Below, one piece after another: positions 1-15,235 of a stretch of 15,235 nucleotides of DNA (the first letter of the stretch is position 1; each line of letters begins with the position of its first letter). Source of the stretch: Promethearchaeota archaeon (GTDB taxonomy: Archaea > Asgardarchaeota > Lokiarchaeia > Sigyniarchaeales > SOKP01); NCBI GenBank assembly GCA_048941265.1, contig JBHLNT010000098.1, forward strand, positions 1 to 15,235, given 5' to 3'. The notes below the pieces were generated by a model. It was not told the DNA's origin. It searched no databases and saw nothing but the letters and a program-made list of their open reading frames with translations. The translations under genes were made by a program, and so were the position numbers.

Positions 1-181
1 TAATCGCATAAGGCCACCAAGGTTGAGTTATTAAAATCATGACAATACCCATTAGTAATAAATTTCTATCTTTATATCTAAAATATTTAATAATCATGAG
101 AACCCCTAAAACAATGCTTAATGTAATTCCAACGATACTTGAAAATCCAGAAAAAATTTCTAATTGAGATAATTCAATCAT
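1..181 (-). CDS. Partial (N-terminal 60 aa) multi-pass membrane protein resembling a family expanded in Lokiarchaeia; runs off the window start
   Basis: Not in the ORF track. Manual translation from the ATG at 181 gives MIELSQLEIFSGFSSIVGITLSIVLGVLMIIKYFRYKDRNLLLMGIVMILITQPWWPYAI with no stop. It has two hydrophobic helices joined by a basic loop (KYFRYKDR), followed by PWWP. The family assignment is from recall, not a search. Confidence 0.8.
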   Translation of the reverse strand, partial: MIELSQLEIFSGFSSIVGITLSIVLGVLMIIKYFRYKDRNLLLMGIVMILITQPWWPYAI

Positions 182-240
182 TTTAATTCCCAATATATTC
201 TTAATTTAGATTTCTATTAAAAAAATAATAATTCTTATTA

Positions 241-254
241 TATTTAAAACTTTA
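241..254 (-). promoter_or_regulatory. Putative archaeal BRE/TATA promoter for the 181 minus-strand gene
   Basis: The minus strand reads TAAAG-TTTTAAATA about 60 nt upstream of the ATG. The AT-rich background limits specificity. Confidence 0.4.
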
Positions 255-603
255 GTTATTTATTATTTTTTTAGGTAGTAAAGGGGAAAGAGAATTTTTC
301 TATGTATTTTTAAATTATTTGCTTCTCTATAAGTTTCTGATGTTTTGAATACCTCATTTTATCAGTTATTAATTGAATTTCTAATTCGATTTGAGTATTA
401 CGAACCAACAAAATAATTTCAGACACGATTAAGGATATTCTAAGTTTATCTTCAACATGTATTATATAAAAATATAAAGGTTCCTTATCTTCTGACAAAT
501 ATATATAATCACTCACGTGATAATGAAATAAGACAGACAAATAGTAGAATTTTAAATAAACCATAGAATTCCATTAAATTTTAACAATTTAATTCAAACA
601 TCT

Positions 604-618
604 AAAAATAAAAAAAAA
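604..618 (-). terminator. Putative oligo-T terminator of the coiled-coil/winged-helix operon
   Basis: The minus strand has T9-A-T5 about 30 nt after the stop codon at 648. U-rich tracts are known archaeal termination signals. Confidence 0.45.
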
Positions 619-647
619 GAATTTATAAAATTGAAAGTTAAAAATAA

Positions 648-1376
648 TTAGGGAAGCGTAATTTCATTTGTTTCTTCGTTTAGATTGATTATACCCTTAA
701 TAGCCATCTGCTTTATGGTCCTAACCGCCATAATAGGGGGTACATCGAGTTGTTTTTTCAAATCGTCCAAATTAGCCGTACCTTTTCCCATAATTGTTGC
801 CAAAATATCTACTTCATGAATTTCCTCATCAGAATTTTCCATTAGAAATGAGGCGAAGAAGCTCATTTGTTTTGATTCGCTGATCTTTTTATCCAAATCT
901 GCCATTTTATTGGCATAGTTAGCTTTTAAATCACTTTCTCTTGATTCGTTATCCACTTTTTTCTGATCTAAAGTAGTTTTTTCTGATTCCTTTGCGGTAA
1001 TCTGTTCATTTACGGAATTTAATTTTGAAGTCAGCGTTTCTAATTCAAACTGAGGTTTTTTCAAATCGTTTGTTGTTGTTTCAAGTGTAGTGGTGAGTTC
1101 CGTAATTTTTGAAGTTAATTCATCTTTTGTAGCCTTAAGATCTTCAAGTTTTTTATCTAGTCCCTCGGATTCAGTTCTTAGACCTGTTATCTCTGAATTC
1201 TGCTCTTTTATATTCTCTAATAGTTTTTCATTTTCAGCTTGTACTGATTTCATACTTTTCCAGGTATTGCTTAAATTTTGAACAATGTCTTCCCCTTGTT
1301 TATTTAAAAGTTGGTGGTATGTATCAAATGCAGTCTCGAATTGCTCAATCAAAGCTAATATCTCTTTTGCGCTCAT
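648..1376 (-). CDS. Coiled-coil protein with C-terminal winged-helix domain (protein B, 242 aa)
   Basis: Continuous heptad core L66, L73, L80, L87, L94, T101, P108, L115, V122, K129, L136, N143, L150. The C-terminus EVDILATIMGKGTANLDDLKKQLDVPPIMAVRTIKQMAIKGIINLNEETNEITLP fits a helix-strand-helix-helix-hairpin winged-helix pattern. The start overlaps the upstream stop (ATGA) and has a purine-rich GGGGG SD-like site. Confidence 0.88.
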   Translation of the reverse strand: MSAKEILALIEQFETAFDTYHQLLNKQGEDIVQNLSNTWKSMKSVQAENEKLLENIKEQNSEITGLRTESEGLDKKLEDLKATKDELTSKITELTTTLETTTNDLKKPQFELETLTSKLNSVNEQITAKESEKTTLDQKKVDNESRESDLKANYANKMADLDKKISESKQMSFFASFLMENSDEEIHEVDILATIMGKGTANLDDLKKQLDVPPIMAVRTIKQMAIKGIINLNEETNEITLP

Positions 1377-2122
1377 ATATCAATCGCCCCCTTTAATGTA
1401 ACTGTTCCAGCGGCCTCATCATATTCAATAGGACCGTTTTGTTCAATCATTTTATTTAAAATCTTTTTAGCAGTAGCTTCTTTCATATCTATTGCTAGCA
1501 GAATATTTCTTAGTTCTAAAGTGGTGTTTGGCTGTAAAGACATGATAAACTGCAAAAGCTGGGAAGAAATATATTTAGATTTTATTAACGCTTTCATGGC
1601 AGCAACTCTATTTATATAGGAATTAGCGAATATTTCTTTCTTTTCAAATTCAATTTTTAGCTCTTCTTCGATTTGATTCATTTTTTCATCGAACTCATCC
1701 TGGAGAGTGGTTAATTCTTGAATTCTATCTTTTAATTCAGCCAATCGTTGGCTGCGGTTTTCTAATTCTTCTTTTTTTACCTTAATTTTCTCCTGTGTCT
1801 CATTTAGTTCATTTTGCACTTTTTGAATTTTGTCCAACAAATCTTGGCGTTGTTTGGATAATTGAGTGTTTTCCTCATCAAATTTAATGATATCTCTGTT
1901 ATTCTGCGAAATCTTATTTTTAAGGGAATTTATTTCATCATCATTTAATTCAATGGTTTTGACATTATTGTTTTTTTCATTTTCAAACTGTTCAATCAAG
2001 TTTAATAAATTTGTAGGATACTCCTTCAGTTTTGGTACTGATTCGGAGTTTATCCTAGTTATTTCTTCGATTGTAGTGATAATTTTCTTTAAGGATGTTT
2101 TCGCATCGGTTATTTCACTCAT
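1373..2122 (-). CDS. Coiled-coil protein with C-terminal winged-helix domain (protein A, 249 aa)
   Basis: Continuous heptad core L67, N74, F81, L88, L95, V102, T109, K116, R123, L130, L137, F144, I151. The C-terminus LLQFIMSLQPNTTLELRNILLAIDMKEATAKKILNKMIEQNGPIEYDEAAGTVTL is winged-helix-like. SD AGGAG lies at 2135..2131, 8 nt before the ATG. Confidence 0.88.
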   Translation of the reverse strand: MSEITDAKTSLKKIITTIEEITRINSESVPKLKEYPTNLLNLIEQFENEKNNNVKTIELNDDEINSLKNKISQNNRDIIKFDEENTQLSKQRQDLLDKIQKVQNELNETQEKIKVKKEELENRSQRLAELKDRIQELTTLQDEFDEKMNQIEEELKIEFEKKEIFANSYINRVAAMKALIKSKYISSQLLQFIMSLQPNTTLELRNILLAIDMKEATAKKILNKMIEQNGPIEYDEAAGTVTLKGAIDI

Positions 2123-2172
2123 AGTACTAACTCCTTTAAAATTTTCTTTAAACCTCTAATCTTAATTATTTA

Positions 2173-2242
2173 ATTTAAATCTTTATAATTCGATGAAATT
2201 GGAGGTCATAATTAAAATGAAATAAAAAATAAGGTTTTAAAA
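2173..2242. promoter_or_regulatory. Divergent promoter region: minus-strand AAAGA-TTTAAAT (about 2184..2173) and plus-strand AAGG-TTTTAAAA (2231..2242)
   Basis: A purine-rich BRE plus TATA-like box lies about 50-60 nt upstream of each divergent start (2122 and 2297). Confidence 0.45.
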
Positions 2243-2296
2243 AGTATTTGTAATTACTTCACGTTAAGGTACAAACATTTTTAATCGCTTTCTAAA

Positions 2297-3397
2297 ATGG
2301 AAGATCAAGACATATATAAGCAATTAATGAAACATTTGTCTAAATTATCAATGAGTTACTCACCAACAGAAGCATTACTTTACATTTTGAAAGAAAATTT
2401 TAATCAAGAGGAAGCTAAAGTTATTTTAGCGTTACATAATAACGTTATACCGTTACAAGGAGCAACTATTAGTGGAATTTCAAAAAACATAGATATTTCA
2501 TTAGATAAACTAGAAAAAATTCTTGTAAATCTCTCGGTAAGAGGATTAATATATTCATATAAAAGTGAAAAAGATGGTGAAATAAGATATGCAATCAATC
2601 AACCAGGATACGGCTTTCCACAAACGTTTTTTTGGAAAGATGAGGTCACTTCTCAATCAGAAAGCATGGCAAGACATGTTCTTCAATATTTTAATACCGA
2701 GGTAACTAAAGAAGTATTCTGCCCATCGCCAATACCATATCGGTTTGTTCCGGTTGATGAAACTATTGAACCAGATATCCAATCAGTATTACCATATCAA
2801 GTAATGAACAATATCATTAAAAACGCAAACGTGATAGCCGTTGCGAATTGTTCATGTAGGGTTACTGGAAAACTTATTGGGAAAGATTGCGGACATCCTT
2901 TAGAAGTATGTATGAAATTTAATGAATTAGCAGAATATATAATCGAAAAAGGATTTGCGAGAGAAGTTTCTAAAGAGGAAGCAATAGAAATTAGTAAAAA
3001 GGCTTCTGAAGCGGGATTAGTTCATTTTGCGGATAATTCAATTGATAATGTACTGCAGAATTGTAATTGTTGTGGATGTAGCTGTTGGAATTTAGGACGT
3101 ATCAGGCGTAGAAAAATTCCAAGAGATGAGATAATTGCCACTTATTTTATTCGCGAAACTCTTGAAAATGAATGTGTTGGTTGTGGTAATTGCATAAGTA
3201 TTTGTCCTGCTGATGCAGTTCATTTGGTAGATAATTTTGCACAAGTAGATAAAGATTGGTGTATAGGCTGTGGTGTTTGCATCTTTAAATGTCCGAATGA
3301 AGCAATTAAAATAGTTCTTAGGGATGATTTGAAAAACAAGATTCCTGAAAAGACTTTTGAAGAATTACATCAAAAAATATTAGAAAATAGATGTTAG
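2297..3397 (+). CDS. Multi-cluster 4Fe-4S binding protein with N-terminal HTH-like region and C-terminal 2x[4Fe-4S] ferredoxin domain
   Basis: Motifs ANCSCR, DCGHPLEVC, CNCCGCSC, CVGCGNCISICP and CIGCGVCIFKCP. The N-terminal ATISGISKNIDISLDKLEKILVNLSVRGLI is winged-helix-like. Confidence 0.9.
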   Translation: MEDQDIYKQLMKHLSKLSMSYSPTEALLYILKENFNQEEAKVILALHNNVIPLQGATISGISKNIDISLDKLEKILVNLSVRGLIYSYKSEKDGEIRYAINQPGYGFPQTFFWKDEVTSQSESMARHVLQYFNTEVTKEVFCPSPIPYRFVPVDETIEPDIQSVLPYQVMNNIIKNANVIAVANCSCRVTGKLIGKDCGHPLEVCMKFNELAEYIIEKGFAREVSKEEAIEISKKASEAGLVHFADNSIDNVLQNCNCCGCSCWNLGRIRRRKIPRDEIIATYFIRETLENECVGCGNCISICPADAVHLVDNFAQVDKDWCIGCGVCIFKCPNEAIKIVLRDDLKNKIPEKTFEELHQKILENRC

Positions 3398-3423
3398 GTA
3401 CCAAATAATTTAACTCAATCTGG

Positions 3424-3455
3424 ATTTTTTTTTAAAATTTTTTAATTTCTTTTTA
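3424..3455 (+). terminator. Putative T-rich terminator
   Basis: Several T-runs 27-55 nt after the TAG at 3397. Confidence 0.35.
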
Positions 3456-3545
3456 TTAAGTTATAATTTAAAACATGCGATAATTATAAATCTAACATAA
3501 AAGAATAATTGATATAAAAACAAGTAAAATTATAGAGTATCAATT

Positions 3546-4007
3546 ATGGCGGAAGATTTCCAAAAAAAAAAGATTGAAGAATTAGAAACAGAACTAGAGT
3601 TAAAAAATAAAGAAATCTCTAGTTATCTTGATCGAATAGAATATCTGGAAGATACAATTATGGAAATAGAAGAATCTCTCTCCAATAAAACCAAAAAAAG
3701 CGAAGATCTACTGCTAAAATTTCAATTAAAGGAATTAGAAAAAAACTATCGGGAGTTAAAAGATAGATTGGGTTATTTACGAAAAGAAAATGTAAATCTT
3801 AAAATAGAACTAGAAAAACTGAATAAAATCAACCCTGAGTCTTCTTCAATTAAAATAATTACTCGAAATCCCCTTTCAGATCAAGTAATTACTTCCATCG
3901 CTAAAGATGTAGTTTATATAGAAAATGAGCTTAAAAAAACAAATATGAATAAAGAAGAAATCGTAAAAAAATTAAGACATTTTATGAAAATCATTAGGGA
4001 TGGTTAG
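3546..4007 (+). CDS. Hypothetical coiled-coil protein (153 aa)
   Basis: E/K/L-rich heptads over about residues 5-95, then a short helical C-terminal segment. A TATA-like TTATAAAT lies at 3484..3491. Confidence 0.8.
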   Translation: MAEDFQKKKIEELETELELKNKEISSYLDRIEYLEDTIMEIEESLSNKTKKSEDLLLKFQLKELEKNYRELKDRLGYLRKENVNLKIELEKLNKINPESSSIKIITRNPLSDQVITSIAKDVVYIENELKKTNMNKEEIVKKLRHFMKIIRDG

Positions 4008-4070
4008 CTTTTTAATCTTAAAAATCCAAATTTAAAGAAATCTTCATTTACGAATTCTTTTAAATTAAGA

Positions 4071-4109
4071 TAATGAAAATTTAAAATCAAAAGCCTTAAT
4101 TTTTCATTA
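4071..4109. repeat. Imperfect inverted repeat, 13 of 14 bp, 11-nt spacer
   Basis: TAATGAAAA-T-TTAA (4071..4084) pairs with TTAA-T-TTTTCATTA (4096..4109). It sits just upstream of a TATA-like TTTAATATA. Confidence 0.45.
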
Positions 4110-4163
4110 ATGATACAATTTAATATAAATAATATTAAGGAACTCTTTTAGAGATGATATAAA

Positions 4164-4853
4164 TTGATACAACAGGGAATTTTAAAAGGTGGGGACCGCA
4201 AAGAACCAAATTGGAAAAAAACTAAACTTGGGGAACCTTTTAAGCAAGCATTAGACAGGTTTAGAAAGGATGTGTTAGGGCGTGATGATTTTGATTCCAC
4301 AGCATTATTACAGTTTGGTTTGTTTATGTCAATGGCAGTTATTAACATGTTGAAAGAAAATGAAGCCACCTTCGGTGTAGAAGGTCAAAGGGCAGTAAAC
4401 AGGGCATTAATTAAAACCGGGTATGATGTAGGAAAACAAATTGTTGAAAATGCTGAAATTCCTACAGATATTACTCCTATAGAATTAATAAGTTTTATAG
4501 CTACTATTATCAATACTCAGGCTTGGACATCCATAGAAGAACCAACCATTGATAGCGAAGAACAATGTTCTTTTAATATTTTATGGTGTCCATTACAAGA
4601 TGTCTATCGAGCTTTTGATTGTAGAGTCCAGCGCTATTTAGTCCAAGGGATTATAGATGCCTTTAGAGAAAAAAATCCTTTTAGTAATGATTATCAAGTA
4701 GAATTCACCCAGACTATTCCGACCGGAAAAGATTTTTGCCGATTTATAATCAATGAAAAAAAGCCGGGGGAACCGGATAAATGGGAAACCTACTCTAAAC
4801 TCTTGGAAAGAAAAGCAATGAATAGGTTAAATGAAAGGAAAAATAAAGAATAG
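4164..4853 (+). CDS. V4R / L-2-amino-thiazoline-4-carboxylic acid hydrolase-like small-ligand-binding protein
   Basis: TTG start. The pattern GYDVGK ... WCPLQDVY ... DC ... QGIIDAF ... VEFTQTIPTGKDFCRFII is the typical CP..C..C/'G.D.C.F' signature of this fold. Confidence 0.7.
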   Translation: MIQQGILKGGDRKEPNWKKTKLGEPFKQALDRFRKDVLGRDDFDSTALLQFGLFMSMAVINMLKENEATFGVEGQRAVNRALIKTGYDVGKQIVENAEIPTDITPIELISFIATIINTQAWTSIEEPTIDSEEQCSFNILWCPLQDVYRAFDCRVQRYLVQGIIDAFREKNPFSNDYQVEFTQTIPTGKDFCRFIINEKKPGEPDKWETYSKLLERKAMNRLNERKNKE

Positions 4854-4913
4854 ATTGGTACAATCATTGGCAAGATAATGTTTTAGATCTTAAAGGGAAG
4901 TTTCAGGAAGGAT

Positions 4914-4928
4914 AAAAAGCTTTATATA
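4914..4928 (+). promoter_or_regulatory. Archaeal BRE + TATA box for the MFS transporter
   Basis: AAAAAGC-TTTATATA is near consensus. An SD-like AAGTGAT lies at 4990..4996 before the ATG at 5000. Confidence 0.6.
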
Positions 4929-4999
4929 AAATTTGAGAAATATATTATTGAAATATTTTATTTTTATGCAATTTAAGAAAAGATTACTGAAGTGATATT

Positions 5000-6394
5000 A
5001 TGTCAAAAGAAAGTAGAATACGAACTTACACTCGAACTGATAAACTTATATGGAGTTGTGCTAGTTTGGGAGGTTCAATAATTCAAGGAATATTTGCTTC
5101 ATTACTTCTCTATTTTTACCAAGTTTATTTGGGACTTGATGCTTGGCTTATAGCCATCGCAGCAGTAATATTTGCCGTATGGAATGCTATAAATGATCCT
5201 CTCTTTGGATATATTTCTGATTCAAAAAGTTATAAAAAAATGGGCCGTCGAATACCTTACATGCGCTTCACAACTCCATTTTTAGGGATTAGTTTTATAT
5301 TAGTATGGTTTGTGCCCATAACTTGGGATAATTTCTCCATTTTCTGGTGGATGCTTATTACAATGCTCCTTTATGATACAGGTTATACTATAGTTTTTCT
5401 TGTGTATTCCGCGTTATTACCGGAGATTTCAGAATCAGATTGGGAAAGGGGGGAATTTCAAAAATATAGTTCTATTTTCTACCTTATAGGGGTAATCATT
5501 GCCTTTGCTATCCCTGATTTATTACGACCCAAAACTGGTCAAGTATCTCTAGTTCCATTGTATATAGGAGTAGTTTTAGTTGCAATTGTTGGATCAATAC
5601 TCATAATAATTCCCACTTATAGATTTGAAGAGCACCCAGAATTCACGCAGATTGACAAACCTCTCGGTCTTATTGATTCTGTGAAATTTACCTTTAAGAG
5701 TAAATCATTTCTAATTGTAGCATGTGCCAACTTTATGAGTATCTTTATGCAATCAATACTCTTAGGATTAATGTTCTATCTGGCAGATTACGTTATGTTG
5801 ACTTCCACTCTTTATCTAGTTATGGCTTTATTTTTAGGATTGGTGATTGGTACACTTTTTGCTAATATTTTAGCAGGAAAATTAGGCGTAGCAAAAGCCA
5901 ATCAAATACTCTTAATTATTGGGGCAGTATTTTTGATGCTTATTCCTTTTGTACCGGTGATATTTATTTTTGCGTGTTTATTTTTTGCTGGATTTGGCTT
6001 ATCTGGACCATTAGTGCTAACTAATGTGCTTTTCGCTCAAGTTGCTGATGAGGATGAAACTAAATCTGGAGTAAGAAGAGAAGCTATGTTTTTTGGAACT
6101 AACGCTTTAATAACCAAACCTGCTCAATCTCTCGCTATTGCATTAGCTGCTGTATTAATACAATTATCTGGTTTCATACCTGCTGGAAAGGAAGGAATAG
6201 TTTTAAATCAACCACCAGAGGCTATTTTTATGATAAAATTTGTGGTCGGCTTTCTCCCAGGATTGGCTATTTTAATTGGTGCGCTTTTTTATATCTGGTA
6301 TCCGCTAAAAGGAGAATATCTAACAGAAATCCAAAAAAAAGTACTAGAAATGCATGAAGAAAAGCACGCAAAATTAATGGAAAAACAAGCTTAA
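5000..6394 (+). CDS. MFS transporter, glycoside-pentoside-hexuronide (MelB/GPH) cation symporter family
   Basis: About 12 hydrophobic segments. GPH motifs WNAINDPLFGYISD, MGRRIPY, YSALLPEIS, VADEDETKSGVRREAMFFG and YPL near the C-terminus. Confidence 0.93.
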   Translation: MSKESRIRTYTRTDKLIWSCASLGGSIIQGIFASLLLYFYQVYLGLDAWLIAIAAVIFAVWNAINDPLFGYISDSKSYKKMGRRIPYMRFTTPFLGISFILVWFVPITWDNFSIFWWMLITMLLYDTGYTIVFLVYSALLPEISESDWERGEFQKYSSIFYLIGVIIAFAIPDLLRPKTGQVSLVPLYIGVVLVAIVGSILIIIPTYRFEEHPEFTQIDKPLGLIDSVKFTFKSKSFLIVACANFMSIFMQSILLGLMFYLADYVMLTSTLYLVMALFLGLVIGTLFANILAGKLGVAKANQILLIIGAVFLMLIPFVPVIFIFACLFFAGFGLSGPLVLTNVLFAQVADEDETKSGVRREAMFFGTNALITKPAQSLAIALAAVLIQLSGFIPAGKEGIVLNQPPEAIFMIKFVVGFLPGLAILIGALFYIWYPLKGEYLTEIQKKVLEMHEEKHAKLMEKQA

Positions 6395-6405
6395 ATATTA
6401 AACCT

Positions 6406-6422
6406 CTTTTTTTTCATTTTTT
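6406..6422 (+). terminator. Putative oligo-T terminator
   Basis: T9-CA-T6 about 12 nt after the TAA at 6394. Confidence 0.5.
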
Positions 6423-6538
6423 GCTTAATTATTTTTATTATATGATTATATTAACTAGATTTATTTATTCATAAAAATTAGCAAATAAATATAATTCTCA
6501 TTTAATATTTTTTTATTGCTTAAAAGTGAAGGAATTAT

Positions 6539-7969
6539 ATGAAGAAAAAGGTATTAATAATTGGTTCTGGTATTGGTGGCTCTGGCATAGGAGCTCTTTT
6601 AATCAATACGGGTAAATATGACATTGAATTATTTGAAAAAAATTCCCTAATTGGCGGGAGATTTTCTACGTATGAAAAAAATGGGTGGAAGTTAGATATT
6701 GGTTGTCATTTAGTGGCAAATTGCGAGAATGGTTCTATTGGATGGATATTAAATGAGATTGGGAGTTCAAACGAAGTGCAATGGTCTTATGCAAGGAATC
6801 CAACACCTAAGTTTTATTATATTAATAAATTTTTATTATTTCCTAGAGAATTGGTTAGATTAGATATTTCCAACAACGATTTAAAGAGTTTATTGAGCTT
6901 AATGAAAGATTTAAATTCATTTTCTGAGGCAGAGCTACAAAAATTAGAAGATGAACAAGTTGATATGCGCACATTTCTTTCCAAATACACGAATAATATG
7001 AAAGTTCTTTCATTATTTTCATTTTTTGCTGGGTTATATTTTGTAATTCCTGATTTCTTGACTCCTGCAAGTGAGTGGATTCGGTGCCAACGTGAAATTT
7101 TAAATTTTAAAACATCTGGATATCCAATCGGAGGCACAATTAGCATTCCAAATGCTTTTTGTAAGTTTATAGAAGATAAAGAGGGTAAAATTCATATGAA
7201 TACAGAAGTGAAAGAAATTATAATTGAGAACGGTAAAGCAATTGGAATTCGGACGGAACTTGGTGTTATTAAAGGAGATTTAATAATATCTAATGCTGGA
7301 GTAAAAAATACTATTCAAAATTTAATCAGAAATGAATTAATAGACCAAAAGTATTACAAAAAAATAAATTCATATGAGTATTCTCTTGCAACCATTCAAA
7401 CGAAAATTGCTTTAGATCAAAAAATAACTAATGAAAAAATGATAATGTTTGTAGGACAAGAAATTTCGCAGGATAATTTGAATGAAAAAGTATTTGAAGA
7501 GAAAAATTTTACGAAATTCCTTCAAGATCTCGATTTTCATCCCATATTGTTCATTCCTATTGTTTCTAATCTAGACCCTTCTCTTGTTCCAGAGGGAAAA
7601 CAGTTAATTATTGCAGGTGGTGGATGTCCGACTCCAAGTCAAGGTTTTAACAACAAAGATCATAAAAACATGTGGGAGCAGGCTATTATTAAAAGCCTAG
7701 AAATAATCTTTCCTAATATTCGCAAGCACATTTTATGGACTGAAACAACAAGTCCAGAAGATATTAACAATTTCGTGAATAAAGATGGAACTGTCATTGG
7801 AATTGGCCAAACCATTGAACAAGTGGGCATTAACAGACCTTCTCATGAAATACCTGGAATAAAGAACCTTTTTTACTGTGGTGCGGATACGGGAAGGACG
7901 GGAATTGGAGGAGAATTAGCAGCTAATTCTGCGATAGAATTATATAAAAAAATTTTGGAAAGTAATTAA
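6539..7969 (+). CDS. NAD(P)/FAD-dependent oxidoreductase, phytoene dehydrogenase-like (COG1233)
   Basis: N-terminal IIGSGIGG, EKNSLIGGR, LDIGCH, YPIGG, and C-terminal IPGIKNLFYCGADTGRTGIG. The substrate is unknown. Confidence 0.9.
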   Translation: MKKKVLIIGSGIGGSGIGALLINTGKYDIELFEKNSLIGGRFSTYEKNGWKLDIGCHLVANCENGSIGWILNEIGSSNEVQWSYARNPTPKFYYINKFLLFPRELVRLDISNNDLKSLLSLMKDLNSFSEAELQKLEDEQVDMRTFLSKYTNNMKVLSLFSFFAGLYFVIPDFLTPASEWIRCQREILNFKTSGYPIGGTISIPNAFCKFIEDKEGKIHMNTEVKEIIIENGKAIGIRTELGVIKGDLIISNAGVKNTIQNLIRNELIDQKYYKKINSYEYSLATIQTKIALDQKITNEKMIMFVGQEISQDNLNEKVFEEKNFTKFLQDLDFHPILFIPIVSNLDPSLVPEGKQLIIAGGGCPTPSQGFNNKDHKNMWEQAIIKSLEIIFPNIRKHILWTETTSPEDINNFVNKDGTVIGIGQTIEQVGINRPSHEIPGIKNLFYCGADTGRTGIGGELAANSAIELYKKILESN

Positions 7970-7991
7970 TTATTTTTCTGATAAAAGAGGC

Positions 7992-8017
7992 GGAAGATAT
8001 GAGAAAAAAAATCTTCC
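7992..8017. repeat. Short perfect inverted repeat (7-bp stem, 12-nt A-rich loop)
   Basis: GGAAGAT (7992..7998) and ATCTTCC (8011..8017), 22 nt after the oxidoreductase stop. Confidence 0.4.
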
Positions 8018-8147
8018 AAAATTAGTTTTCCTAAATATATTTTCTATGTTGTGGTTAAAGCGAATCTATATAATTACCTTATTTAGATAATCAGAAAGAA
8101 TATAAATCATTTTAAAATTATAATCTTAAATTTACAAGTGCATCATT

Positions 8148-9461
8148 ATGGTTAATATCAGCTCTAAAATCGAACAGAATAAATTACAAAAGAATACAGA
8201 GAAGAATTTGCCTCAAAAGTTTAATTTTATGAAGAATAAGGTTGTAGTTCTTAAATTAGATGATTATGTACCAAAAAAAATTAATGAAGCTTTACGATCC
8301 ATTATCGAAATGTTAGGAATTAAGGAATATTTTGTCAATACATCAATTATGCTTAAACCCAATCTTCTTGCCCCTTCGAAAAATGCATTTACCCCCCCTG
8401 AAATTGCATTGGAATTAATTAAAATCTTAAAATTAGATATGAAAGCAAAAGAGGTTGTCGTTGCTGATTCGACCATGACAAAGAAATTAACTAGTCTTAC
8501 TATTAAGAGAAGTAAATTCAAAGAAATATGCGAAGCAGAAGGGGTTAAAATTATTAATTTTTTTGAGTCTGAACGTATTAAAGTTGAATTAAATAATCCT
8601 GATTATGCTATTGAAGAGAAAATCTATCTACCGAGAGAAGTTAAAGAAGTTGATCTACTTATTAATTTGCCCAAACTAAAAACTCATAATGGATATGTCT
8701 ATACAGGTGCTATAAAAAATCTTTTTGGACTTTTGGGAAATAAAATGAATATGCATATGACTCATAAAAATAAGATAGATTTTCAAAAAATGCTCGCAGA
8801 CATATTTTTTGCAGTGGAAGAGACGAATAGTAGATATATCCCTAAAGTGTTAACTATCATGGATGCGGTAATAGCAATGGAGGGTAAAGGGCCTAGAGCG
8901 GGTAAACCAAAAAAAATTGGTCTTATGATCGCGGGATTTAATCCAGCAGCAGTAGATATTGTAGGATATACCTTAATGAATGGAGATCCAAAAGATTTAG
9001 ATGCGATAACCTCATTAGCAAAAAGAACAGAGCTCCCTGTAGATATAACTCAATTAGATATCATTGGTGTAGATAATATTAATGACTTCATTGTAAAAGA
9101 CTTTAAAAAACCGAAAATTACCCTCCTAAACAAGGACCGTATTAGAGAAGGGAGTCTTTTTTCAATAATATCAGAAAAATTGATGAAAATCTCTATTAAA
9201 ATCAATCGCAAACGATGTATCCTCTGTGAAGAGTGTGTGAGACACTGCCCTGCTGAAGCTTTAGTTAGTAAACATGATCGGATTTTTGTTGATCATGATG
9301 CATGTATTGAGTGCTTTTGTTGCGGAGAAAGTTGCCCAAATAATGCCATTAGTGCAAAATTTTACGTATTTAGAATTTTACCGTTATTGATACTAGTATT
9401 AAGTTTAGGAGCAATATTTATCATTTGGTTGTTAATTTCGATGGTGAATTGGATTTTTTGA
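8148..9461 (+). CDS. DUF362 domain Fe-S protein with 2x[4Fe-4S] ferredoxin domain and C-terminal transmembrane helix
   Basis: DUF362 motifs LKPNLL, INLPKLKTH, TGAIKNLFG, DAVIAMEGKGP and AAVD. Ferredoxin motifs CILCEECVRHCP and CIECFCCGESCP. The last 28 aa are hydrophobic. An alternative ATG start exists at 8229. Confidence 0.9.
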   Translation: MVNISSKIEQNKLQKNTEKNLPQKFNFMKNKVVVLKLDDYVPKKINEALRSIIEMLGIKEYFVNTSIMLKPNLLAPSKNAFTPPEIALELIKILKLDMKAKEVVVADSTMTKKLTSLTIKRSKFKEICEAEGVKIINFFESERIKVELNNPDYAIEEKIYLPREVKEVDLLINLPKLKTHNGYVYTGAIKNLFGLLGNKMNMHMTHKNKIDFQKMLADIFFAVEETNSRYIPKVLTIMDAVIAMEGKGPRAGKPKKIGLMIAGFNPAAVDIVGYTLMNGDPKDLDAITSLAKRTELPVDITQLDIIGVDNINDFIVKDFKKPKITLLNKDRIREGSLFSIISEKLMKISIKINRKRCILCEECVRHCPAEALVSKHDRIFVDHDACIECFCCGESCPNNAISAKFYVFRILPLLILVLSLGAIFIIWLLISMVNWIF

Positions 9462-9582
9462 TTTTTCAAAATACGCAAAATGTTCATTTACTTTGCTAAA
9501 ATAATTATTTTAGTTTGAGTTTTTTTCTGCTTAAATCTCATAAATTTAAATATTTTTCTTCTCTTATTATAATGATAACTCA

Positions 9583-10626
9583 ATGAGAGTAAACAAGGGA
9601 AATTTCCCTGTGGGGAAACTCAAACATGACTTTTTAGCTAAGATGCTTAATTATTTCATTTCTGATTTAGATATTCAAGATGAGAGAGTGATTCTTGGAT
9701 CCAAAATTGGTGAGGATGCCGCTGTAATTGATATGGGAGAAAAATACTTAGTTGCTAAAATGGATCCCATAACATTTGCTACTGATGAGATTGGATATTA
9801 TGCTGTGAATGTTAACGTGAATGATGTAGTTTGTATGGGTGCCGAACCAAAATGGTTTCAATCTACAATTTTATTACCAGAAGGAGCCACAAATGAAGAG
9901 AATATTGAAAAAATTTTCAAAAGTATCCATGATACATGTAAGTCAATGAATATAACAGTAATAGGGGGTCACACAGAAGTAACTCCTAACCTTGATAGGC
10001 CAATTGTTATTGGATCTTTATTTGGTGAAGTCGACAAGGAAAAACTTGTTTTAACCTCAGGGGCAGAACCGGGAGATGCCCTTATTCTAACTAAAGGAAT
10101 TTTTATAGAAGGGACGTCTATTATTGGTCGTGAAAAAGAAAATGAACTTAAAGAAAAGGGATATGATTCGTCATTTATTGAAAGATGTAAGAATTATCTT
10201 TATGAACCAGGAATAAGCGTTTTTAAAGAAGCCCTTTTAGCTAATGGAAATTTTAAAATTAATTCTTTTCATGATCCTACGGAAGGTGGTTTATTCTGCG
10301 GTATTGCAGAAATAGCTCTTGCTTCTGAAACGGGATTTCTCATAGAACTAGAGAGAATTAAGGTTTTACCTGAACCATTAGAATTAAGTAAGGTTTATAA
10401 TTTAAATCCTATGGGAACCATCTCATCAGGTTCATTATTGATTACTTTAAATGATGATAATGATAAACCCTCCAAATTAATTGATATTTTAAATAAAAAT
10501 AACATTTTAGCAGAAAAAATTGGCAAGGTAGTGGATAAAAAAGAAGGACTAATGATAAAAAGAAAAGATGGAAAAATAAAACCCCTTAGATATTCTGAAA
10601 CGGATGAGATAATCAAAATCTTCTAA
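9583..10626 (+). CDS. AIR synthase (PurM) superfamily protein, HypE-like but lacking the C-terminal PRIC cysteine
   Basis: Motifs GKL, GEDAAVI, DPIT, NVNDV..MGAEP, IGGHTEVT, HDPTEGG and SSGSLL. The protein ends SETDEIIKIF. Confidence 0.88.
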   Translation: MRVNKGNFPVGKLKHDFLAKMLNYFISDLDIQDERVILGSKIGEDAAVIDMGEKYLVAKMDPITFATDEIGYYAVNVNVNDVVCMGAEPKWFQSTILLPEGATNEENIEKIFKSIHDTCKSMNITVIGGHTEVTPNLDRPIVIGSLFGEVDKEKLVLTSGAEPGDALILTKGIFIEGTSIIGREKENELKEKGYDSSFIERCKNYLYEPGISVFKEALLANGNFKINSFHDPTEGGLFCGIAEIALASETGFLIELERIKVLPEPLELSKVYNLNPMGTISSGSLLITLNDDNDKPSKLIDILNKNNILAEKIGKVVDKKEGLMIKRKDGKIKPLRYSETDEIIKIF

Positions 10627-10773
10627 TATAATTTAGAACATAATAATATTTCATGAAGTACCTAATATTTTTATATTCAAAATTTAATCTAATATTATAT
10701 CTGTATAATTTATTATTGATTAATCTTTTATATTGATATTAAATCGACATATTAATCTAAAAATTGGTTCAAA

Positions 10774-12699
10774 GTGGTAAATAAAGAATTATCGGATATT
10801 CTAAATCAACTAAGTGAGATCTTTTCCAAAGAACTATTCAATCTTAAAATGCATAAAAAAGTCTATTTTAATATCTTAGAAAAAAGAAAAGATAGATTCG
10901 AAGAATTATTAGATCTTATAAGATCAAAATGGATTGAGTTTAAGGATTCAAATCAAAAAAGAGTAATTAAGAAAACTTTTACCAGTTTTCTTTATATCAA
11001 TTTTCATAAGTTTTTTAAAATCTATTTACAAAATTTTTTTGGATTTGATGGTGATTCTTTAGAATTAATTATAAAAGAAAATGTTTCTGACGACACTCTC
11101 CTCTTAGAATATAATTATCATCTAAACTTCGAAGAGATAGCCCAATATGAAGAGATTTCTAAGAAAGTTGATGGCAATCTCTATGGAATGCTATTTTTTA
11201 CAGGATATTTATATTTACTCATCGATGTAATAGGAATCCTAATAAGGAAAACTATTGGAGAGGATATATTAATTACTCTGGATTGTGGGATAATAAAAAG
11301 TGAGGATGAACGAAAATATCTAAATTTTTTGGTATTAGCTAGAAAAGATAATAAAGAAATCTTTATTAATTATTTTTACATGACGCTCTATTACTTTCTT
11401 AAGCAATTTAAAGGAATTCCTGATAAAATCTATGATAAATTATTGGAGGGGAGGGAAAGTATATACCAAATAGCATTAGATCAATATCCTACAGTAAAAG
11501 AACGACTAGCTAATTTATTATTTTACTTTTATAAAAAATGTAAGTTATTAGAAAATTTTTGTCCCTTATTAGATTTTTTGAATTTTGTATGCTCACGTGT
11601 AGAAGATTCCTCTTTTTCTAAACATGATGTTATTAGAAAAGATTTTTTAGATAATTTTGAATATACCATTGAAAAAAAAAATTCCTTGACCAGAATTTTC
11701 GATTTCTTGGATCAGAAAAGTACTCTTTATAGTACGTTTCAAGCAAATAACCTTCCTTCTCAAAAATCTCAGTTCAATTTATTTTTATTAATCATGAAAT
11801 ACTTCTTTGCGAGCGGACTAGAGGCTTTTGAAGTCGGTGATCTATTATTTTTACCTGAAACGTTTAAAGATAGATTAAATCAATATAATAAAAACGTAGA
11901 TAATGGTGTAATAGGTTCAAATACCATCAATGAAATAAATGAATTCATTAATCATTTTGCAATAATATCGAATATTGGAGAAATCAATAATATTTTTAAG
12001 AAAATCTTTAAAAAGGAAGTTTCTCAAATGAATTATCGATTTTTTAGGTCCTTTTTAAAAAGTTTTAATACTAAATTTTTAAAGTTAATCGAAAAAGAGA
12101 ATGAGATATTATCTGAGAATCCGAAAAATGAGCCCTATACATTTAATATTATTGTAGATCATGTTTCCAGAATGTTGTATGTATTAATAGATAAAATTTT
12201 CCTTACATCATCCAATCCAGATGATTCTTCTAAAAATTTTATCGATCCTCGAGGTAGATATATTGGCAAAAATATTGCTTTAAGAGTATTAGAACTTTTC
12301 ATCTTTCAAGAGTTTAATTATTCAGACGATATCTGGCCAGAAATATTAATCTCTATAAATGCTAATAGAGTTAAAAAGGATTTAAAAGGTATTATTAACA
12401 TTCCAGATAAATATTTCTATAATGACAAAGATTTAACTAGGTTCTACACCACTTATAATTTGCAATCGCTTGCTCCAGCATTATTTTTTGAAGAGTGGTT
12501 AATTAGTGAGATTATTTTACCTTTAAACGATTTTATTTTAACAATTAAAAAATTAGTAAAGGATACTTCAAACAAAAAAGAAATTTCGGAACAACTTTTT
12601 AATTTTTTGCGTAAAAATATTAGAGCAAAGAATGCTTTAAATGATATAAAATTTGTATGCGAGCGTCTGGCTCAATTCTGGGTCCAAGAAAAAAAGTAA
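10774..12699 (+). CDS. Hypothetical protein, 641 aa, predicted mostly alpha-helical, F/Y/L-rich
   Basis: A long open frame in a very AT-rich genome. The track gives a GTG start, and a downstream ATG (MHKK) is also possible. No family was recognised. Confidence 0.85.
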   Translation: MVNKELSDILNQLSEIFSKELFNLKMHKKVYFNILEKRKDRFEELLDLIRSKWIEFKDSNQKRVIKKTFTSFLYINFHKFFKIYLQNFFGFDGDSLELIIKENVSDDTLLLEYNYHLNFEEIAQYEEISKKVDGNLYGMLFFTGYLYLLIDVIGILIRKTIGEDILITLDCGIIKSEDERKYLNFLVLARKDNKEIFINYFYMTLYYFLKQFKGIPDKIYDKLLEGRESIYQIALDQYPTVKERLANLLFYFYKKCKLLENFCPLLDFLNFVCSRVEDSSFSKHDVIRKDFLDNFEYTIEKKNSLTRIFDFLDQKSTLYSTFQANNLPSQKSQFNLFLLIMKYFFASGLEAFEVGDLLFLPETFKDRLNQYNKNVDNGVIGSNTINEINEFINHFAIISNIGEINNIFKKIFKKEVSQMNYRFFRSFLKSFNTKFLKLIEKENEILSENPKNEPYTFNIIVDHVSRMLYVLIDKIFLTSSNPDDSSKNFIDPRGRYIGKNIALRVLELFIFQEFNYSDDIWPEILISINANRVKKDLKGIINIPDKYFYNDKDLTRFYTTYNLQSLAPALFFEEWLISEIILPLNDFILTIKKLVKDTSNKKEISEQLFNFLRKNIRAKNALNDIKFVCERLAQFWVQEKK

Positions 12700-12700
12700 T

Positions 12701-13216
12701 CTATTTTAAATCAAATATTTCTAAAAATTTTTCAAAATCTTCTTCGATATCAACAATTGGTGCATCAAAATTATCTAAAAATTCTATTTTTTCTTTACAA
12801 ATTAACCCCGAAATCATTTTTACATGTATAGTTAATTGAGACTCAATATCCTCTAATTTATTTACACATAATATAGTAGGATAATCTAGATTTCTAAAAC
12901 CTTCTATAAAAATCAAATCTAATTGAAATGGACCTTTAGATATCCAGTCCATTATGTGTGGTAAATCTACATATTTTCTTATAAAAATAGTAGTTTCGTT
13001 GTAAACATTTTTCGTAATAGCATAATTCCCACCCGCTTTAAGATATTTAAAAGTATCTTTTCCCTCCTCATCGATCTGATGTTCATGAATGTTTTTTATC
13101 ACAGCTATTTGAAAATTAAAATGTTTCTTTAATAGCTTAATTGCGGTTTCAATAAGATACGTCTTACCACTTCCAGAATATCCAACCAAACCAATCACTT
13201 TATAGCTAGAATGCAT
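12701..13216 (-). CDS. mobB: Molybdopterin-guanine dinucleotide biosynthesis protein B
   Basis: Walker A GYSGSGKT, IAVIKNIHEH, D.EGKDT..Y.KAG and DLIFIEGFR, at a typical length for the family. Confidence 0.9.
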   Translation of the reverse strand: MHSSYKVIGLVGYSGSGKTYLIETAIKLLKKHFNFQIAVIKNIHEHQIDEEGKDTFKYLKAGGNYAITKNVYNETTIFIRKYVDLPHIMDWISKGPFQLDLIFIEGFRNLDYPTILCVNKLEDIESQLTIHVKMISGLICKEKIEFLDNFDAPIVDIEEDFEKFLEIFDLK

Positions 13217-13585
13217 CTTTCTTGACCTATCTATTATTTTGTAAGCTCTAATTTAAAATAGATTTGTTTTACCTAAAAATTTAGTGAAATTATGTTCAAT
13301 TACTCCAATAATTTTGATTATTTTGCAATACTTAAAAATTAAAACTAAACCGACAAAAATAGAATCATTAAATTAATCGCAATAGGGGAATGTTTAGCTT
13401 TTTAAAAAAATTCAAGGCTTCTATTAATTGTATAGCTCTAAATTAACTTTATCATTTATCTATATTTCAAGTTCTTAATTCTAGATTAATAATTAAATAT
13501 AAATAATAATTAACATGAATTTTTCTTTAAATATTTAGAGATTATGAAAAAAATATGAGAACCTTGACATAGTTCAAGATTTAAT

Positions 13586-14017
13586 ATGATTAGCAAAACC
13601 TATAAGAAAAGATATCAAGATATATTTGAAGAGAGCTATTACATACCTCAGGTACCCCGATTAAACCTGAAAGAATTTCAAAAAAGGAAGTCCTCACTTA
13701 TTTCAGAGCTTAGTTTTCTGCTTACTACTCATCATAACTCCAAAAATGAATATATTAATATTTCAAAGTTAATCATATCAACGCTAAACGCGCCTGAAAC
13801 TTATTTTTTCGATAAAATATTTTCTTTTAAAAAAATTGATCCTTTTGAGAATTTTGATTTGAAAGATTATCTTATAACCATTAAGAAAATCAGCATCCTG
13901 CTGAAATCATATCCATTCTCATCGGTTCAACAGACACTAGAAAATTGTTCAACAGAGAGATTTTTTATCAAACTATTTTTGAAAGTTTTTTTATTAAACA
14001 AGCAATTTTATAAATGA
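13586..14017 (+). CDS. Hypothetical protein (143 aa)
   Basis: An isolated ATG-started ORF with a TTTAAATA box at 13526..13533 and no competing ORF. No motif was recognised. Confidence 0.55.
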   Translation: MISKTYKKRYQDIFEESYYIPQVPRLNLKEFQKRKSSLISELSFLLTTHHNSKNEYINISKLIISTLNAPETYFFDKIFSFKKIDPFENFDLKDYLITIKKISILLKSYPFSSVQQTLENCSTERFFIKLFLKVFLLNKQFYK

Positions 14018-14174
14018 AGTAGTTTAGTAATCTCCTTATTTTCAAATTAATCCATTAAATTATATTTAAAAATTATTAATAATGTTCTTGTATATATTAA
14101 ACTTCTAATTATTTATAAAAATCTTATAACAATAGTATAAATTCAATGGGATAAATAACAATTAAGTGATTAAA

Positions 14175-15235
14175 TTGAAGGTATTATTGATATATCCCCC
14201 TTTTCCGTTTGGTAAAGGAATGGGAGCTACAATGTGCAGTCCACCTTTAAATATATTAACATTGGCTGGTTCTGTCCCAGAACATAAAGTTGATATACTC
14301 GATTTAAACATTGATAAGTCTTATGGAATCAAAAAAATGGAAGAAAAGTTTTGCAACTACGATTTGGTTGGTGTTACATGTATGACATTTTCCTTACGGT
14401 TAGTTTTGAATATTTGCAAATTAGCAAAAAAAAATGGCATACAAACACTATTAGGTGGTTTCCATCCTACTTTAGATTCAAGCGTCATTGATAAGTTCGA
14501 TTGTATAGATATGATTGTGAGAGGTGAAGGCGAAATTACTTTTAAGGAACTTTTAAGTGGTAAACCAAAAAAAGAAATTTTAGGCTTATCATATAGAGAA
14601 AATGGAAAGGTATATCATAATCCTGATAGACCATTTGTTAAGAATTTAGACGAATTACCATTTCCTCGAAATGATCTTGTGGATCCTAGGCCTTATCATT
14701 ATTTATGGATCCGCGCTTGGGTCTGTGAATCATCGAGAGGGTGTCCATTTAGTTGTAAATTTTGTTGTGTTACAAAATTTTATAAAAGAACTTATAGAAC
14801 AAAATCGCCAGAACGTGTTATTAAAGAATTAATGCAAGTTCCTCTTAAAACTAATCTCGTCTTTTTTGTTGATGATAACTTCACAATGAATAAAAAAAGA
14901 ATTATGCGAATCTGTAAATTACTTCAAAAAACTCATCTTAATGAGCACTTATTACTAGTATGTCAATCCAGAGTTGATGATATCGCAAATAATCCAGATA
15001 TGGTTGAAGAAATGCATAAAAGTGGATTCGTTTGCTTTTTCATAGGATTTGAGAGTTTCAAACAAATTGCCCTAGATCGTATGAAAAAAGGATATACGCT
15101 TGATAAAGTAAAAAAATGTATAAAAATATGTCATGAGAATGGTATAATGGTTTTTGGTTCGTTTATAATTGGTAATATTGGAGAAACTAAGGAAGATACA
15201 AGAAAAACATTTAAATTAATGAAAGAACTTGACTT
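14175..15235 (+). CDS. B12-binding domain radical SAM protein (partial, runs off the window end)
   Basis: Not in the ORF track. A TTG start at 14175 (in-frame GTG at 14166 also possible) follows the SD-like AAGTGAT. Translation: MKVLLIYPPFPFG...SPPLNILTLAG...DLVGVTCMT...LLGGFHPT...IVRGEGEITF...NLDELPFP...ESSRGCPFSCKFC (CxxxCxxC at 14742..14765)...FFVDDNF...FIGFES. Confidence 0.93.
   Translation, partial: MKVLLIYPPFPFGKGMGATMCSPPLNILTLAGSVPEHKVDILDLNIDKSYGIKKMEEKFCNYDLVGVTCMTFSLRLVLNICKLAKKNGIQTLLGGFHPTLDSSVIDKFDCIDMIVRGEGEITFKELLSGKPKKEILGLSYRENGKVYHNPDRPFVKNLDELPFPRNDLVDPRPYHYLWIRAWVCESSRGCPFSCKFCCVTKFYKRTYRTKSPERVIKELMQVPLKTNLVFFVDDNFTMNKKRIMRICKLLQKTHLNEHLLLVCQSRVDDIANNPDMVEEMHKSGFVCFFIGFESFKQIALDRMKKGYTLDKVKKCIKICHENGIMVFGSFIIGNIGETKEDTRKTFKLMKELD

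Follow-up and report, generated by a model that had tools for sequence, protein, structure and literature searches.

Hop2-Mnd1, an accessory heterodimer of the eukaryotic recombinases, is built of two paralogous chains, each made of a winged helix and a long coiled coil, which run parallel and hold their winged helices side by side. The kinetochore complexes Spc24-Spc25 and Ndc80-Nuf2 are also heterodimeric parallel coiled-coil rods, with paired globular heads at one end, and serve as connectors of fixed length. Here, we report on a pair of overlapping genes, called A and B below, from a 15,235-nt stretch of the genome of a Promethearchaeota archaeon (contig JBHLNT010000098.1, positions 1 to 15,235, hereafter the window). 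They encode paralogous proteins of 249 and 242 residues (aa), each predicted to consist of a long coiled coil ending in a winged helix. The two genes form a real, conserved and undescribed module of the Asgard archaea, and this module is most likely a two-headed heterodimeric coiled-coil rod.

The likeness to Hop2-Mnd1 lies in the two paralogous chains of winged helix plus long coiled coil, the pairing of A with B being itself predicted. However, the winged helix is N-terminal in Hop2-Mnd1 and C-terminal in A and B, the heads of A and B are acidic, and we claim no homology. Neither protein matched the Pfam families Mnd1 or TBPIP at E ≤ 1 (for B, among the best 25 of 44 families), and Hop2-Mnd1 gave no sequence match in the PDB lists from our single-protein and profile searches. 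As for the kinetochore rods, their heads are RWD or calponin-homology domains whereas those of A and B are winged helices, and the matches obtained to them are of the generic coiled-coil kind (SPC25, E 2 and E 0.52; Ndc80, E ~1e-5, over the coil only).

By architecture, the nearest published analogues of the pair would be the coiled-coil and winged-helix proteins of euryarchaeal ESCRT (endosomal sorting complex required for transport) loci. In the part of the article by Makarova et al. (2024; PMC10936438) considered here, arCOG09748 and arCOG11741 are a coiled coil with a C-terminal winged helix, encoded beside ESCRT-III and Vps4, and both the winged helix and the coiled coil are proposed as ancestral ESCRT building blocks. 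These proteins, like CdvB with its own C-terminal winged helix, are archaeal, join a helical region to a C-terminal winged helix thought to bind protein and not DNA. They are, however, single genes of Vps4/ESCRT-III loci in Euryarchaeota, whereas A and B form a paralogous pair without an ESCRT neighbour, and the comparison is one of architecture. Moreover, according to PMC10936438, arCOG09748 contains an additional globular domain in its centre and the winged helix of arCOG11741 is duplicated, neither of which is seen in A or B.

Results

Both open reading frames of the initial annotation are present, together with their ATGA overlap, and so are the expression signals listed with them, namely Shine-Dalgarno-like sites before A and B and T-runs past the stop of B (Table 1). 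The latter are a probable archaeal oligo-T terminator. These signals were read directly from the sequence; for the promoter also proposed initially, it shows only an AT-rich spacer of 174 nt between A and a divergent gene. Beyond B, the contig continues for another 647 nt. At E ≤ 0.001, the databases hold 306 homologues of A and 441 of B, nearly all of them of 248-251 or 242 residues, and we therefore consider A and B to be real genes. Neighbouring locus tags connect the matches of A with those of B.

Profiles of the two proteins, run on 400 Asgard genomes, matched 121 of them for A and 147 for B. The window's family accounts for 134 genomes, which we tallied by hand from two tables: 99 have both genes, 2 only A, 4 only B and 29 neither (either gene: 105). 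Five of the six single-gene genomes have a match that is partial and/or lies at a contig end, and the sixth owes its match to the B' gene of a second pair, described below. Four genomes that are 97-99% complete (G168, G174, G166 and G227) are devoid of both genes, and the pair is therefore dispensable and not an essential core machine. With wider profiles, the A-then-B pair was found in families f3, f9, f11, f13, f16, f17, f18 and f19, with genes of ~245-265 aa; in family f29, B alone was seen, in a cut locus. At locus L046:5900-6800 (G065), B seems to stand alone because a run of 100 N interrupts A, of which only the final 59 residues can be read, immediately before B.

The 65 loci with a match were fetched around the matches and so are not a random sample. 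They yielded 59 adjacent A-then-B pairs, 55 of them distinct. Among these 55 pairs from other genomes, the two genes overlap by 1 nt in 33 cases, by 4 nt in 9 and by 11 nt (as called) in one; in the remaining pairs the spacing does not exceed 28 nt. The question raised at the outset, whether the two genes always go together, can thus be answered positively: A precedes B in every recovered pair, and orthologues were not found apart. In some genomes the pair has been duplicated as a unit, and the coils of the additional proteins, A' of 283-284 aa and B' of 288-289 aa, are each longer by ~33 residues within their C-terminal third. This second pair lies at L052:3474-8547 and L053 (G208, G237) and, by coordinates, also in G217, G239, G263 and G257.

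A profile of the head alone, run against 1.84 billion representatives, gave 353 matches at E ≤ 0.001. Among the best 150 of these 353, 86 are family-like (200-300 aa with a C-terminal match), 28 are short fragments and 12 fall elsewhere; 24 are long proteins with at least three generic winged helix-turn-helix (wHTH) repeats (MarR, HTH_24, HTH_11; one Wolbachia SET-domain protein). This search brought no new informative architecture beyond forms of 283-289, 322 and 488 aa. We looked up 22 family-like clusters, of which 10 carry an organism name, in every case an Asgard one (Promethearchaeota, Thor-, Hermod-, Baldr- and Heimdallarchaeota, Hodarchaeales or 'Asgard group'). A search of the ESM Atlas with A returned nothing beyond Asgard clusters of A's own family.

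The paralogy of A and B had been proposed from a gapless alignment of their C-terminal domains. The residue pairs on which it was based (T201/T200, L204/L203, D212/D211, A218/A217 and M225/M224) are all correct, and the common V/I-T-L ending corresponds to VTL in A and ITL in B, both in the last strand. Taken alone, this pairwise likeness is not above chance, since only 6 of 58 positions in the heads are identical and a BLASTP comparison of the two proteins yields E = 1.4. It is the comparison of profiles with hhalign that supports the proposal. The Loki-level profiles of A and B align over 174 columns (93.9%, E 1.6e-7), and phylum-wide profiles of 21 A and 23 B sequences align over 246 columns, collinear from residue 1 through the final strand (99.7%, E 8.8e-27). 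In distant lineages, the B profile directly matches A proteins (at 9.6e-10, for example). A and B are, then, paralogues over their full length, a relationship seen only at the profile level.

As the initial annotation had supposed, the pair matches no characterised family. Pfam and NCBIfam give nothing above cut-off for A or B, only sub-threshold coiled-coil families. Sequence searches of the PDB, with the single proteins and with four profiles, return generic coiled coils (myosin, SMC, keratin, tropomyosin, MCP and hemolysin E) and never cover the head. PF24161, precomputed on many homologues, is a coiled-coil model of 925 positions (CCDC39) without a match in the window's genome. A full-text literature search found no description of the pair; the asCOG supplementary tables of PMC10936438, which could list the family by number, lay outside its scope. 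The closest approach to a known family is that of B to Pfam MarR (PF01047, gathering cut-off 24.6 bits): B of the window scores 15.2 bits and A has no match, and the B orthologues P0151 and P0233 pass with 25.2 and 25.7 bits, over residues 188-231 and 190-234, respectively. We rejected the automatic JGI name 'chromosome segregation ATPase', and with it an SMC, Rad50 or RecN identity: the matches to SMC_prok_B (30.0 and 31.7 bits, cut-off 567) are confined to the coil, and proteins of 249 and 242 aa show no NTPase domain match.

AlphaFold2 models, built from alignments of 40 rows for A and 43 for B, agree with the architecture first read from the sequences, with a long coiled coil and a C-terminal winged helix in both proteins and a separate N-terminal helix in A. 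For A (mean predicted local distance difference test score, pLDDT, 88.0) helices are predicted at residues 2-24, 30-181, 188-194, 204-211 and 215-227 and strands at 201-203, 232-235 and 240-243; for B (pLDDT 85.3) helices at 3-171, 173-181, 187-198, 203-209 and 214-226 and strands at 200-202, 231-233 and 238-240. The order H1-S1-H2-H3-S2-S3 of a wHTH domain is thus found in A from 188 to 243 and in B from 187 to 240. Helices of 152 (A) and 169 (B) residues correspond to ~22-25 nm, which fits the rod of 20-25 nm estimated initially.

The structural comparisons concur on the fold of the two C-termini. With VIA-align 2, run against 48,161 solved chains, the head of A superposes on the BirA wHTH (Z 8.7, root-mean-square deviation (rmsd) 2.3, 63 aligned), the DprA winged helix (Z 8.3, rmsd 1.6, 55 aligned) and SarZ (SarZ/MarR; Z 8.1, rmsd 1.7, 59 aligned), and that of B on BlcR (Z 10.5, rmsd 2.0, 60 aligned) and AntR (Z 8.8). 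The head of B also lies near protein-binding winged helices, namely those of APC2 (Z 8.7), the PolD-binding Rpa2 (Z 8.5) and Cul1 (Z 8.1). Foldseek gave wHTH matches (SarZ, HlyU, OhrR) with a probability of 0.9-1.0 but with E ≥ 0.025. The winged helices of ESCRT-II and CdvB are absent among the 50 VIA-align matches listed for both models, an absence that does not exclude them. The last ~60 residues of A and B thus share fold and topology with wHTH domains of the MarR, IclR and ArsR type. Unlike MarR-type regulators, however, A and B have acidic heads that terminate a ~150-residue coiled coil and are devoid of the MarR dimerisation helices.

Within the Loki order, the coil is conserved throughout (mean column identity 73% and 76%, no indels); outside the order, it retains its length and not its sequence. 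Phylum-wide, the most conserved stretch is the linker with the head, with the motifs AL..L..K..I..PE...I..L in A and FLLxES..PEVxIL...LK...PP....RT...L..KGI in B. The N-termini of both proteins are nearly invariant within the order, a hint that the end of the rod opposite the heads holds another binding site. As for the heads, they are acidic (net charge -1 in A and -2 in B), as are the whole proteins (isoelectric points 5.04 and 4.73), and their wings, 'IEYDEAAG' and 'NLNEETNE', have no basic residue. For these reasons protein binding seems likelier than DNA binding: in their charge the heads depart from typical DNA-binding winged helices and come closer to those that bind protein, such as the WHB domains of cullin and APC2, the Rpa2 winged helix and those of ESCRT-II.

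Do A and B pair? With a simple heptad assignment, the 'a' positions fall at 57, 64, 71... in A and at 56, 63, 70... in B, an offset of exactly one residue. The d-e-f positions are skipped at an aligned place in both chains (157/158 in A, 156/157 in B), and in this register the conserved polar 'd' residues N60 of A and Q59 of B face each other. We scored g-e' charge pairs with a crude script of our own in 16 lineage representatives, over 49 offsets and against 500 within-position shuffles. At the in-phase offset that aligns both ends, the complementarity of A:B is 4-14, the 49 offsets averaging ~0 with a standard deviation of ~3. It beats the shuffles at p ≤ 0.05 in 10 of the 16 representatives, exceeds both A:A and B:B in 14, and exceeds the best antiparallel register in 12 (three ties, one lower). 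A complex predictor, in which A:B was the sole pairing run, returned 'weak support' with a score of 0.52, the best of three controls reaching 0.00 (contact agreement at least 98%, partner pLDDT at least 84). The same mark is reached by 116 of 157 solved complexes and by 2 of 215 mismatched pairs and, at scores of 0.60 or less, by 18 of the 157 and by both mismatches.

We therefore favour, with a probability of roughly 55%, a reading in which A:B is a parallel, in-register 1:1 coiled-coil rod with two heads that bind protein, acting as an adaptor of fixed length. A and B would be co-transcribed and translationally coupled, and would assemble 1:1 into a parallel two-stranded coiled coil of ~150 residues, or ~22 nm. 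One end of this rod would carry the conserved N-termini, that is the extra helix 2-24 of A with the N-terminus of B, and the other a pair of dissimilar MarR-like winged-helix domains, both mildly acidic, lying next to each other. The twin heads might then bind one protein partner and the N-terminal tip another. The genes themselves, their paralogy, their predicted fold, and their strict co-occurrence, order and coupling across Asgard archaea stand as results; the heterodimer, its parallel register and the protein-binding role of its heads are what we infer from them. Coupling, heptad phase and stutter, hetero-specific g-e' charges and the weak complex-prediction pass all speak for the 1:1 rod of the initial annotation, although they do not amount to proof of pairing.

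Several points weigh against this reading. Co-occurrence, gene order, overlap, joint duplication, heptad phase, stutter and the facing polar 'd' residues are also expected from common descent. The charge scores of A:B were the best of up to three in-phase offsets, whereas A:A and B:B had one offset each. The lineages compared are related and not independent, and six of the 16 representatives are not significant (g2, p 0.44; f13, 0.27; f16, 0.17; the second pair, 0.13; f18, 0.06; f19, 0.05). A:B shows no excess of fully hydrophobic core layers (20-22 of ~45, about chance), and such counts, whether of hydrophobic or of like-charged layers, cannot discriminate A:B from homodimers because a homodimer pairs identical residues by construction. 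The complex predictor returned no interface, and its score falls in a range in which a pass is less likely to be right than wrong. The head of B is modelled at moderate confidence (pLDDT 58-76), DNA-binding regulators rank first among the structural neighbours of both heads, and B retains an R-T..K pattern in helix 3. Finally, a third pair (L059:3820-6036, G275:C16) consists of a 249-aa A'' followed by a 488-aa B'', in which a B-like coil is followed by a winged helix at ~145-196 and by 290 residues without a Pfam match; this pair does not fit a rule of matched lengths, as the coil of B'' is ~55 residues shorter.

Table 1. Positions of genes A and B, of their predicted domains and of nearby signals in the window
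Feature	Position	Strand	Remarks
Gene A	1373..2122	-	249 aa; N-terminal helix, long coiled-coil helix, C-terminal winged helix and short extra tail
A residues 2-24, N-terminal helix	2051..2119	-	T5, K8 and K12 invariant within order; AlphaFold2
A residues 30-181, single long helix	1580..2035	-	unbroken heptads 43-157, stutter 157/158
A residues 186-249, winged helix	1376..1567	-	residues 182-249 net charge -1
Gene B	648..1376	-	242 aa; paralogue of A; single long helix from residue 3, C-terminal winged helix
B residues 3-181, long helix	834..1370	-	unbroken heptads 28-156, stutter 156/157; P108 invariant within order
B residues 182-242, winged helix	651..833	-	residues 187-242 net charge -2; phylum-wide motif
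ATGA, overlap of A stop and B start, translational coupling	1373..1376	-	tcat on the + strand
GGAG, Shine-Dalgarno-like, 8 nt before ATG of A	2131..2134	-	read from sequence
GGGGG, Shine-Dalgarno-like, 10 nt before ATG of B, within last codons of A	1387..1391	-	read from sequence
T-runs past stop of B	604..644	-	T5 640-644, T9 610-618, T5 604-608; read from sequence

The synteny survey envisaged in the initial annotation, which we carried out across the Asgard loci, settles the order of the pair, but its neighbours differ by lineage and no constant partner emerged. A search for conserved neighbours in the fetched loci found nothing shared across lineages, and no ESCRT, SMC, division or replication gene lies beside the pair in the scanned loci. 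In the window's genus the pair is accompanied by metabolic genes and by the divergently oriented gene of an Fe-S protein; a radical SAM gene lies downstream of it in f16, and in f19 a DNA methylase is found. Of the 11 genera of the window's family that carry the pair, six (g4, g6, g8, g11, g12 and g13) have a gene for a Kdo/APH-like kinase (~280 aa) immediately upstream of A and in the same orientation, for example at L038:7874-8710; in g11, 7 of the 9 pair-less genomes are also without the kinase gene. In the window's genus, this gene is located elsewhere and is present in the pair-less genomes G168, G169, G172 and G174, and the kinase is therefore not coupled to the pair.

Genes of the small-GTPase and longin kind are found near some of the pairs. 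In all three f18 genomes examined, which belong to two genera, the gene that immediately follows B, in the same orientation, encodes an Arf-family GTPase (L050:4533-5087, L051:8140-8697 and L064:1779-2318). Pfam Arf matches it at E 3e-52 in L050 and 1.5e-52 in L064, and the copy of L051 was placed by BLAST clustering. Two genera have longin genes on either side of A'B', in genomes that hold only 4-8 matches each to that longin family. The corresponding same-strand cluster encodes, in order, a SIR2_2-TPR protein (947 aa), a 111-aa open reading frame, a longin (132 aa), a P-loop NTPase-like protein of 730 aa, A', B', a second longin (130 aa) and an OsmC-containing protein; with its SIR2 and NTPase genes, this setting is reminiscent of defence or signalling islands. 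In a genome of the window's genus, a longin / 243-aa protein / longin cluster lies 3.5 kb downstream of the pair (L034:946-2780, G170), and the same longin tandem occurs in the window's genome on another contig (G000:C105:5096-6787), which may continue the contig of the window. A gene of the GPP34/GOLPH3 family (E 2.5e-19) stands two genes from the pair in an f13 genome (L049:8953-9615), the B protein of this locus being 87% identical to one labelled Heimdallarchaeaceae. We regard the small-GTPase and longin neighbours as local hints and not as a conserved link.

Elsewhere in the window, the divergent gene (2297-3397, +) encodes 366 aa, with a weak wHTH-like stretch at the N-terminus (TrmB 14.7 bits, below cut-off) and a 2x[4Fe-4S] ferredoxin domain at the C-terminus (Fer4_21, E 6.5e-11). 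The next gene (3546-4007, +) encodes a coiled-coil protein of 153 aa that belongs to no family. Among the fetched loci, both occur only in the same-genus locus L034. Two further open reading frames, at 10774-12699 (+; 641 aa) and 13586-14017 (+; 143 aa), have no NCBIfam match at E ≤ 0.1. On the 3' side of B, an AT-rich open reading frame of 84 aa (310-564, -) has no family match and is probably not a gene.

Discussion

What else could the pair be? One answer is a heterodimeric DNA-binding factor, either a regulator or a chromatin or chromosome protein, whose coil merely dimerises MarR-like winged helices for an asymmetric site or for DNA bridging. The top matches in structure are indeed wHTH regulators (BlcR, Z 10.5; AntR, 8.8; BirA, 8.7; SarZ/MarR, 8.1; and SarZ, HlyU and OhrR in Foldseek), B orthologues reach the Pfam MarR cut-off, and R219, T220 and K222 in helix 3 of B are kept across most of the phylum. 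We nevertheless think this unlikely, given that the heads and the whole proteins are acidic, that the wings have no basic residue, that dimerisation needs far less than a 150-residue rod and that no conserved target gene is seen among the neighbours. More generally, acidic heads together with the lack of chromosome, division or ESCRT genes among the scanned neighbours argue mildly against a DNA or division role. The long unbroken heptads with their stutter could instead recall cytoskeleton-like filament formers, homo- or heterodimers that would, as intermediate-filament and crescentin proteins do, form polymers end to end or laterally. To this would also fit the weak sub-threshold matches to Filament, crescentin, lamin, tropomyosin and keratin, and the unusually high conservation along the whole coil within the order. 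However, these matches are of the generic coiled-coil kind and lie far below cut-off (Filament 16.8 bits against 40, Rod_CreS 18.6 against 100), only length and head are kept outside the order, and some genomes of 97-99% completeness do not have the pair, so that we hold polymerisation to be improbable. Similarly doubtful is a role as an Asgard-specific tether of fixed length in a small-GTPase and longin trafficking apparatus, the heads docking a GTPase or longin module and the N-terminal tip a second partner. This idea stems from the Arf GTPase of f18, the longins that flank A'B', the longin cluster 3.5 kb from the pair and the GPP34/GOLPH3 gene of f13, which are all local hints. If true, such a tether would be a prokaryotic counterpart of the eukaryotic coiled-coil tethers.

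Two further explanations link the pair to membrane remodelling and fusion proteins, and we give them still less credit. A SNARE-like fusion protein is suggested by the UniRef name of one A orthologue ('V-SNARE coiled-coil homology domain-containing protein') and by a weak match of A 97-155 to Synaptobrevin/VAMP (Pfam 14.6 bits, E 0.03; E 0.0015 for an orthologue; VAMP4 at E 0.0015 with the profile), in which R123 of A would, by alignment to VAMP2, presumably take the position of the zero-layer arginine. The score is below the Pfam cut-off of 26.4 bits, though, and R123 is conserved within the Loki order only, lost in other lineages and faced by a leucine, L115, of B in the profile alignment. 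There is no membrane anchor, the protein ending in a soluble winged helix, and the coil has ~150 residues against ~60. This explanation is disfavoured and, to us, hardly credible. An ESCRT-linked adaptor, whose heads would bind ESCRT-III-type proteins in the way of the euryarchaeal ESCRT-locus proteins or of the contact between the CdvB winged helix and CdvA, is better grounded, as the architecture is the same as that of arCOG09748 and arCOG11741 in the part of PMC10936438 considered, but we still judge it quite improbable. No Vps4, Snf7 or ESCRT-I/II family was found among the scanned neighbours in the fetched loci. The Asgard section of PMC10936438, in the part used here, does not list the A/B family and reports no ESCRT components in Hermodarchaeia and Hodarchaeia; yet members of our family (P0407, P0351 and P0295) are labelled as lineages said there to be ESCRT-free, and B occurs in 9 of 19 f19 genomes, the mapping of labels to lineages being our own deduction.

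In conclusion, the preferred reading, a protein-binding rod formed by A and B, would give the Asgard archaea a two-protein module of fixed geometry, encoded by an adjacent and coupled pair that has been kept from Loki-type to Heimdall-type lineages, and for which we found no family name, no solved relative and, by full-text search, no paper. Some restraint is due, as no eukaryotic homologue was found and the pair is dispensable in some genomes. Eukaryotes, for their part, build kinetochore, recombination and trafficking connectors from heterodimeric coiled-coil rods with paired heads, and identifying what the rod of A and B connects would add a piece to the cell biology of the Asgard archaea.

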